From NCBI RefSeq assembly GCF_001677475.2, contig NZ_CP015229.1: a stretch of DNA of 64,000 nucleotides, one strand, 5' to 3'. The notes below the pieces were generated by a model, which saw only the letters and a program-made list of their open reading frames with translations, was not told where the DNA came from and did no database searches. Positions 40,395 through 42,823 of this stretch are shown one piece after another. The stretch's first letter is position 1, and each line of letters starts with the position of its first letter. The position numbers and the translations under genes are program-made. Source of the DNA: Escherichia coli. GTDB taxonomy: Bacteria; Pseudomonadota; Gammaproteobacteria; Enterobacterales; Enterobacteriaceae.

Positions 40395-40665
40395 CCTGAG
40401 AATCCCCATTCTTCTGGTTATTACGTGTGTTGTGATGTTGTTGTTCAGCACTTTATTTCGTTTTATGCATGACTACCCGTGCTTTAGCAGCATACTCTGC
40501 TAAAACATACCCGATTTTTATGATATTGGAATAGCTATTTTGACAGTTTATTAACAATCTGCGTGGGGATTGGCGTTTTGCCGGAGGGGGAAACTGATTA
40601 TTGCAGAGGCCCAAAAAACAAAAACCCCGGATTCTCATCCAGGGTTCTCTGCTTAGTAGCGGAAA

Positions 40666-41520
40666 TTACGCTTCAATGGCAGCGCGAAGTTTTTTCATCG
40701 CGTTCTTTTCCAGCTGGCGCACACGCTCAGCGGAAACACCGTAACGGTCAGCCAGTTCCTGCAACGTGGACTTGTTGTCTTCGTCCAGCCAGCGCGCGCG
40801 GATGATATCCTGGCTACGCTCGTCCAGACCTTGCATCGCGTCGGTCAGACGGTTTGCCGCCTGCTCTTCCCAGTTATCATCTTCGATGCCGTCGGCAAAG
40901 TTAGATGATTTATCCTGCAGATAGAGCACCGGTGCCATCGGCTGGCTGTCGGAATCGTCGTCGGAAGACAGGTCAAAGGTCATGTCCTGTGCCGCCATAC
41001 GTGATTCCATCTCACGTACGTCTTTGCTGGTTACGCCCAGTTCACGGGCCACCATTTCGACTTCATCCTGGTTAAACCAGCCCAGACGCTGCTTGGTTTT
41101 ACGCAGGTTGAAGAACAGTTTGCGCTGCGCTTTGGTGGTCGCAACTTTGACGATACGCCAGTTACGCAGAACGTATTCGTGGATCTCTGCTTTGATCCAG
41201 TGAACGGCGAAGGAGACCAGGCGCACACCCACTTCCGGGTTGAAACGGCGCACTGCTTTCATCAGGCCGATGTTACCTTCCTGAATCAAATCCGCCTGTG
41301 GCAGGCCATAGCCCGCATAATTACGAGCAATATGAACAACAAACCGCAGGTGAGACAGGATCAGCGTTTTAGCTGCTTCCAGATCGCCATGGTAATGCAG
41401 CTTTTCAGCCAGCGCCCGCTCCTCGTCAGCCGACAACATCGGCCACGCGTTAGCTGCCCGGATGTAGGAATCCAGGTTGCCAACTGGGGCTAAAGCTAAA
41501 CTTTGCATTTTGTCAGTCAT
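40666..41520 (-). CDS. rpoH: Heat-shock sigma factor RpoH (sigma-32)
   Basis: 284-aa ORF; sigma-70-family regions 2 and 4. Confidence 0.95.
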
Positions 41521-41626
41521 TCAAATCCTCTCAATCGATATCTTCTGGCGCTTCAGTGGTAGCAACAACTGTGCCAGAGCTTAAGAGCAACGAGGTTATC
41601 ATTCACTGTTTTATCAGACCGTGATT

Positions 41627-41635
41627 TTATCCACA
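41627..41635. promoter_or_regulatory. DnaA box in the rpoH multi-promoter region
   Basis: Exact consensus 9-mer TTATCCACA about 110 nt upstream of rpoH. Confidence 0.5.
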
Positions 41636-41764
41636 AGTTCAATGCAAGCTTGTGAATAAATTACGCACAAAATGTGACATAGAGATGAAATACCGGGAAG
41701 AGACAACGGGGTCTCTTTCCCTGCTACGGAACCCATTGCAGGGAAAGAGTATAACACGCTTTTA

Positions 41765-42823
41765 TTATTCAGGCGTAAAGTGGCGTAAATGTTGTACCGT
41801 GGCAAGCCACGCTGCCACCCAGCCAATCATCGAGCATACCAGCAGCAATAGCAGGCATTCATCGAACGATAAACCATTGATATCAAACTTCGTTCCGAAA
41901 ACCTGTGCCACTTCCGCAACCGCCGATGACAATCGCAGTACCAGAATTTCTGACAAAATTAGTGACAACAATGCGCCAGAAAACCCCAGCAATGCGCCAC
42001 CATACAGGAACGGGCGCAGGATGAAACCATCCGTTGCACCAATCAGTTTCTGCACGTTAATGGAGTCACGACGAGCAAAGATACTCAGGCGTACACTGTT
42101 ACCGATGACGAGGAACACTGCCGCCACCATCAACACGCCGATCATCGCCGAAACGCGCCCGACCAGCCCGGTCAACGCCGCCAGACGGGCAAACCAGCTG
42201 TCATCCATCCGCACTTCGTCAATGCCGTTAATCTGCGTGATACGATCACGCAGCGTATTGAGTGATTCCGTCCCCTGAAAATCGAGTTTCGGGATCACCA
42301 CCGCCACTGCCGGAAGCGGGTTTTCTTCCAGCATATCCAGCGCACCACCAAAACCAGACCAGTTACGGAACTCGCCCAGTGCGTCTTCACGAGAAAGATA
42401 GTTCACTTTCTCCACGCCTTGCTCGGCCTGCAACTGTGCCACCACGCCCGCAGCGGCGTCATCGTCCAGCGTTTTTTGCAGATAAACAGTGATTTGCGGT
42501 GACGGATAATACTGCGTCGCCGCCTGATTAACGTTTTTGTACACCATATAACAGACGCTGGGCAGCGTCAGGGAGATGGCGATAACCATCACCGTTAAAA
42601 ATGTGGCGAACGGTTTGCTTTTCAGATCCTGCAATGCGCCGTGGAAGGCATAGCGCACCTGTTCGTTGAAAACGTTGGTTTTGCGATTAACCGGTTTTGG
42701 CGAGGATTTCGCGCGTTTCGGCGCGTTACGACCGCCGTCGCCAGAGCCGCCGACCGATTTACGGAAGCGATCAAGACGCCCGCCAAACTGCCGAATATGA
42801 TTGATTGCATCGCGCTTATTCAT
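41765..42823 (-). CDS. ftsX: Cell-division ABC-transporter-like permease FtsX
   Basis: Track ORF 361 aa; conserved start [15 protein letters not shown] gives 352 aa; overlaps the ftsE stop. Confidence 0.95.

Follow-up and report, generated by a model that had tools for sequence, protein, structure and literature searches.

The rpoH locus, which encodes sigma-32, is a textbook case of dense regulatory input, in which sigma-70, sigma-E, sigma-54, CRP, CytR and DnaA act within about 250 bp. In Escherichia coli K-12 the rpoH regulatory region carries the promoters P1, P3, P4, P5 and P6 together with sites for DnaA, CRP and CytR, and EcoCyc (as quoted in PMC9032294) gives RpoD, RpoE, RpoN and RpoS as the sigma factors of the gene and includes DnaA, CRP and CytR among its regulators. 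Reviews and recent papers name rpoH as a DnaA-repressed gene, citing Wang and Kaguni 1989. The P3 promoter, as P3::lacZ, is a standard sigma-E reporter and has also been used as a template for in vitro transcription. In the 1989 work of Wang and Kaguni, DnaA binding reportedly repressed both P3 and P4.

Two further groups of promoters are close to rpoH in their design. The dnaA promoter region, mioC and uvrB have, like rpoH, a consensus 9-mer at a place where bound DnaA would exclude RNA polymerase, and the three are listed together with rpoH both among the regions bound in ChIP-seq and among the negatively regulated targets. rpoH is unlike them in that its box lies in the spacer of a promoter for an alternative sigma factor (sigma-E) and shares bases with a CRP-like site; moreover, its ChIP signal is far below those of mioC, polA, purH and datA. 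The second group is formed by the CRP/CytR promoters of the deoP2 type, which have tandem CRP sites about 53 bp apart. rpoH is likewise a CytR target, and its CRP-like elements, which are also centred 53 bp apart, flank a GTTGCAT-like segment; unlike in the deoP2 type, the distal CRP element of rpoH is a half-site only and its proximal one is overlaid by a DnaA box.

In this work we describe the interval between ftsX and rpoH in a 64,000-nt stretch of E. coli DNA (contig NZ_CP015229.1; hereafter the window, to whose first letter all positions refer unless a reference genome is named). A preliminary description, made from the letters of this DNA, had noticed an exact DnaA box about 110 nt upstream of rpoH and had related it to a multi-promoter architecture and to repression of the gene by DnaA. 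The interval is, base for base, the control region of E. coli rpoH, well characterised as a multi-promoter region; both the control region and its DnaA box were already known, and the current understanding of them is unchanged. The best explanation of the interval as a whole, to which we give a probability of about 90%, is that it is this known control region, in which DnaA bound at box 1 would block P3 and P4. The comparative additions are modest: a consensus box with an inverted partner at fixed spacing, the bases between them varying, and a box that appears to have arisen within a more ancient sigma-E promoter, the spacer of which is free to vary in other lineages. Two further small points are that the partner box proposed in the ChIP-seq work is not conserved and that a conserved stem-loop is found near P1.

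Experimental procedures

Window positions were converted to NC_000913.3 coordinates by adding 3559263. Upstream sequences from other enteric bacteria were collected from metagenome contigs by a DNA-pattern scan anchored on the ribosome-binding site and first codons of a non-E. coli enteric rpoH allele; because it consists of these elements, the anchor is independent of the promoter. This yielded 79 loci, for 75 of which 300 nt of upstream sequence were available; the 47 distinct upstream sequences among these made up, together with the references, 50 distinct Enterobacteriaceae upstream sequences, which are 69–86% identical to that of E. coli. Species genomes were scanned separately with the RpoH protein, and the matches listed in this case were mostly distant Proteobacteria, with two close relatives among them.

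Results and discussion

The interval is the K-12 rpoH control region

Positions 41521–41764 comprise the whole ftsX–rpoH intergenic region (244 bp). The two flanking genes are on the minus strand. The rpoH ORF (40666–41520; sigma-32, 284 aa) carries that name in the annotation of MG1655 and of other E. coli genomes and was 100% identical in the alignment, and the upstream neighbour is the ftsX ORF (41765–42823), which corresponds, with the offset of 3559263, to the MG1655 annotation 3601028–3602086. The Shine-Dalgarno sequence of rpoH is GAGAGG (41527–41532, minus strand), with ATTGAGAGGATTTGAATG invariant in E. coli, Enterobacter and Citrobacter.

MG1655 and the window are 100% identical across 350 nt spanning the intergenic region, and the flanking genes are the same; the intergenic sequence is that of the K-12 regulatory region base for base, we saw no difference between the two, and this is the same locus. 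Furthermore, a 501-bp query around the region was found in 5425 of 5426 complete E. coli genomes, every time between ftsX and rpoH. The DnaA box, the sigma-E promoter and the sigma-54 promoter of the window all agree with published genome-wide data for K-12 rpoH. The multi-promoter architecture proposed in the preliminary description is thus borne out, with a region identical to that of MG1655 and with sigma-E and sigma-54 promoters in it. An Rfam scan of positions 40400–42000 (E ≤ 1) gave zero matches.

DnaA boxes and the sigma-E promoter P3

The exact DnaA consensus TTATCCACA is present once in the 64-kb window, at 41627–41635 on the plus strand (box 1; TGTGGATAA on the rpoH sense strand). 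Box 1 is an exact high-affinity R-type 9-mer, antisense to rpoH, and it lies 107–115 nt upstream of the ATG, so that the exact box placed at about 110 nt from the gene in the preliminary description was correct and is, in addition, the only one in the window. That it should be a chance motif without any role for DnaA is highly improbable. At least one exact box appeared in 28 of 100 shuffles of the window, and the count by itself is therefore not significant; yet only about 0.0013 exact boxes are expected in these 244 bp, a second box fitting the relaxed consensus stands 15 bp away (chance of about 0.006), DnaA occupies the site in vivo, and it has been retained in 49 of 50 diverged sequences whose upstream regions are 69–86% identical to that of E. 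coli. We therefore rejected a chance origin of box 1, on the grounds of the 0.0013 expectation, the binding in vivo and the 49/50 conservation.

The second box, TTATTCACA (box 2; 41651–41659, minus strand), fits TTATNCACA and has the relaxed form TTWTNCACA, and it is convergent with box 1 at a distance of 15 bp. Box 2 is presumably the second box of the 1989 study. The rpoH region has, in consequence, at least two DnaA boxes and not the single one of the preliminary description. A possible weak third box, TTACGCACA (box 3; 41661–41669, plus strand), agrees with the consensus at 7 of 9 positions and lies in a conserved block, and its quality is at chance level, with 176 such sites in 64 kb. A DnaA ChIP-seq table (PMC11317965) has the same 9-mer upstream of purH, as the weak partner box there.

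Box 1 is surrounded by the sigma-E promoter P3 (41614–41640, minus strand), composed of the -35 element GAACTT (41635–41640), a 16-nt spacer and the -10 element TCTGA (41614–41618). On the sense strand it reads tGAACTT-GTGGATAAAATCACGG-TCTGA, and cGG precedes the -35 element as in the consensus. GAACTT-N16-TCTGA occurs at no other place in the window, and 100 shuffles contained none. According to Rhodius et al. (PMC1312014), the sigma-E consensus has GGAACTT at -35, a spacer of 15–19 nt with 16 strongly preferred, (T/C)GGTCAAAA (TCAAA-like) at -10 and a discriminator of 5–6 nt, and the P3 elements agree with both the consensus and the spacing rules of that study. With the discriminator rule the transcription start is predicted near 41607–41608, and box 1 would then occupy about -28 to -20, inside the 16-nt spacer and with one base common to the -35 element. 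The scan for sigma-E and CRP motifs that the preliminary description had proposed gave a sigma-E promoter around the box and a CRP-like site overlapping it; the box, far from lying outside any promoter, is inside P3.

DnaA binding in vivo and the reported repression of rpoH

A 2024 ChIP-seq study of DnaA (PMC11317965) reported 16 bound regions, among them "rpoH" with the coordinate 3600944. The sequence given there for rpoH, tTTATCCACAagTTCAATGCAa, is identical letter for letter to window positions 41626–41647 and contains box 1, and the peak centre maps to window position 41681, that is, 22–54 bp from boxes 1–3. Box 1 (41627–41635) is a real DnaA binding site. As regards repression by DnaA, which had also been put forward in the preliminary description, the reviews and the ChIP-seq paper list rpoH as a DnaA-repressed and DnaA-bound target.

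Table 1 of the same study (PMC11317965) cites NC_000913.2 in its footnote, and the rpoH value of 3600944 fits only NC_000913.3. In fact, this value falls within the intergenic region of version 3 (3600784–3601027), whereas the version 2 locus is near 3598855. The NC_000913.2 label is probably a labelling slip, and it matters for the mapping of those peaks.

Steric repression of P3 and P4 by DnaA is the most likely mechanism, with an uncertain weight in vivo. DnaA on box 1 would keep RNA polymerase off P3 and off P4, the sigma-70 promoter next to it, and rpoH transcription would be lowered as a result; box 1 would overlap the -35 region of P4. The inverted box 2 (41651–41659), 15 bp upstream, would probably aid or stabilise the binding of DnaA, and P6 (sigma-54) and the distal P1 would both be clear of box 1. 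P3 and P4 are presumed to be the repressed promoters, and the start sites of P4 and P5 are presumed from consensus matching; for P4, the sequence contains weak candidate hexamers only.

It could be argued that DnaA does bind box 1 but mainly as a bystander or titration site, that the sequence is conserved for the sigma-E promoter, P4 and the CRP site, and that DnaA has little effect on rpoH under normal conditions. In agreement with this, the rpoH peak was the weakest of the 16 regions, with 4-fold enrichment over the control, and of 32 consensus boxes in the genome only 13 were bound, that of rpoH being one of them, which means that a consensus box is not sufficient for binding (PMC11317965). 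Moreover, in proteomics of strains in which the DnaA-ATP level or DnaA titration was altered, the protein levels of most of the DnaA regulon were unchanged. Against it, the literature does report repression of rpoH by DnaA, and the pattern of conservation bears on the same question, as described in the next section.

Conservation of the DnaA boxes in Enterobacteriaceae and beyond

Box 1 (TGTGGATAA) is kept in 49 of the 50 upstream sequences, with a column identity of 0.998. The corresponding values are 0.99 for the sigma-E -35 element, 1.0 for the -10 element and 0.94 for the sigma-E spacer, and that of the whole intergenic region is 0.74. The GATAA within box 1 is invariant though it is not needed by either the CRP or the sigma-E consensus. 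Box 2 has an invariant CACA end and fits TTATNCACA in 32 of the 50 sequences, and its distance to box 1 is 15 bp in all of them (50/50). Between the two boxes, the 15-nt segment occurs in 24 variants, and it is the first ten bases that vary. The two close relatives from the scan with RpoH, Enterobacter sp. Bisph1 and Citrobacter werkmanii, have retained both boxes as well as the sigma-E and sigma-54 promoters.

As judged from these alignments, box 1 is conserved beyond the flanking non-coding DNA, and this conservation is confounded by the sigma-E, probable sigma-70 and CRP signals that overlap it; because of that overlap, it should not be credited to DnaA alone. The coincidence of box 1 with the best CRP-like site and with the edge of the sigma-E -35 element speaks for a site that is kept for reasons other than DnaA. 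On the other hand, the invariance of GATAA, which CRP and sigma-E consensus sequences do not require, the unrelated spacers of rpoH sigma-E promoters in other taxa and the maintenance of box 2 at a fixed distance of 15 bp all argue for a role of DnaA. Owing to the weak ChIP-seq signal, the unchanged proteomics of the regulon and the confounded conservation, the possibility that DnaA acts at rpoH as a bystander, or modulates it only to a minor extent, carries in our view a substantial minority weight, and the reading that we favour is still repression of P3 and P4 from box 1.

The ChIP-seq table lists another partner for box 1 at rpoH, separated from it by 2 bp, in a 'double box' TTATCCACA-ag-TTCAATGCA, and in that study double boxes predicted binding across the genome better than single boxes did (PMC11317965). 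That DnaA binds in this way, and not through the inverted upstream box, seems unlikely to us: TTCAATGCA matches 5 of the 9 consensus bases, the equivalent 9-mers match 3/9 in Enterobacter and 2/9 in Citrobacter, and, beyond three bases common to the sigma-E -35 element, TTCAATGCA falls in a hypervariable segment. It is the inverted box 2 that is conserved, at fixed spacing, instead, and at 2–3 bp from box 1, the distance of the 'double DnaA box' in PMC11317965, we found no conserved second box.

Differences from the window inside the 81-bp core were present in 1694 E. coli genomes. Three divergent E. coli alleles have their differences only in the inter-box segment and at spacer position 41621, and the DnaA boxes are untouched in them. 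Positions 41641–41650 form the core's sole polymorphic hotspot in E. coli, and across genera this stretch is hypervariable.

In Acerihabitans, an Enterobacterales MAG, Haemophilus and Rodentibacter, a sigma-E-like promoter is present upstream of rpoH, with an unrelated spacer and no DnaA box. Sigma-E therefore needs no such spacer sequence and, since these same taxa have a promoter without the box, the DnaA box would be an addition to an older sigma-E promoter made at the level of the Enterobacteriaceae. This agrees with what Ramirez-Santos et al. 2001 reportedly found. Upstream of rpoH in Photorhabdus and in Pantoea symbionts, neither a sigma-E-like promoter nor a DnaA box was found. In Vibrio hannami there is an exact TGTGGATAA about 103 nt upstream of rpoH, oriented as in E. 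coli and about as far from the gene. Two other Vibrio species carry TTTATGCATAATAAC in the corresponding position instead, and the V. hannami box is therefore probably a coincidence or a lineage-specific feature.

CRP-like and CytR-operator-like elements around box 1

The CRP-like site TGTGGATAAAATCACG (41620–41635) has two mismatches to TGTGA-N6-TCACA and overlaps box 1. It is conserved and is the only site with three or fewer core mismatches in 41480–41830, and there are 14 sites as good or better in the whole 64 kb. Box 1 overlaps the promoter-distal half of this site, and the TGTGG of box 1 is common to the proximal CRP half-site. Judging from its geometry, TGTGGATAAAATCACG is the probable class II site of the cAMP-dependent promoter P5. 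A distal CRP half-site could also exist at 41673–41688 (four core mismatches), its centre 53 bp farther upstream than that of the proximal CRP-like site; its TGTCACA is invariant in the alignment of the 50 sequences.

The hypervariable inter-box segment (41641–41650, minus strand) contains CTTGCATT in the window, and many of its 24 variants in the 50 sequences have GTTGCAT; both CTTGCATT and GTTGCAT resemble the CytR operator. rpoH is a documented CytR target, and the scores of its CytR cassettes were called low in a comparative study. Since box 1 and the CRP-like site have bases in common, there is probably competition or interaction between DnaA, CRP and CytR within one 60-bp stretch.

An extension of this idea is that the functional DnaA unit would be the two convergent boxes, TTATTCACA and TTATCCACA, kept 15 bp apart around a freely evolving CytR-operator segment, in place of the 2-bp-spaced double box, and that DnaA would compete there directly with CRP and CRP–CytR. 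We offer this proposal tentatively, as a real possibility that falls clearly short of even odds. If it were true, the level of the initiator would gate the inputs that sigma-32 synthesis receives from catabolite control, nucleosides and envelope stress.

Other promoters and an upstream stem-loop

The rpoH region also includes the sigma-54 promoter P6, CTGGCACAGTTGTTGCT (41561–41577, minus strand), a refinement to the preliminary description; its start is predicted about 30 nt before the ATG. The sequence TGGCACAGTTGTTGCT (41561–41576) conforms to the -24/-12 sigma-54 consensus TGGCAC-N5-TTGCW, and TGGCA-N-TTGC is kept in 50 of the 50 sequences. The motif is identical to that of the sigma-54 ChIP-seq peak OS36, with a FAT of 47, which is marked in EcoCyc as experimentally confirmed. 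This promoter, absent from the preliminary description, gives with that FAT of 47 one of the stronger intergenic sigma-54 ChIP-seq signals.

Farther upstream, the extended -10 element TGTTATACT (41748–41756, minus strand) is a candidate for the sigma-70 promoter P1, from which transcription would start near 41741, at a distance of about 221 nt from the ATG. Among the 33 distinct sequences that cover this segment, TGNTATA(A/C)T is conserved in nearly all. The element would correspond to the mapped P1, a distal sigma-70 promoter more than 200 nt upstream. A simple sigma-70 scan, insensitive to weak or activator-dependent promoters, found neither P1 nor P4 and gave a spurious promoter-like match across the start codon.

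Between ftsX and the proximal promoters there is a conserved stem-loop (41713–41749, minus strand), with the arms CTCTTTCCCTGC (41738–41749) and GCAGGGAAAGAG (41713–41724). Its 9-pair stem is kept across 20 enteric sequences with compensatory changes in three pairs, and the folding of an 80-nt RNA containing it gave -27.8 kcal/mol (z = -4.0). A terminator scan of the region found none, and no T-run terminator was called at the stem-loop. It could be the 3' end or the terminator of ftsYEX, or a 5' structure of P1 transcripts. The stem-loop starts within the P1-like -10 element, and in E. coli it is followed by a second hairpin (41711–41721 and 41695–41704), with some bases common to both.
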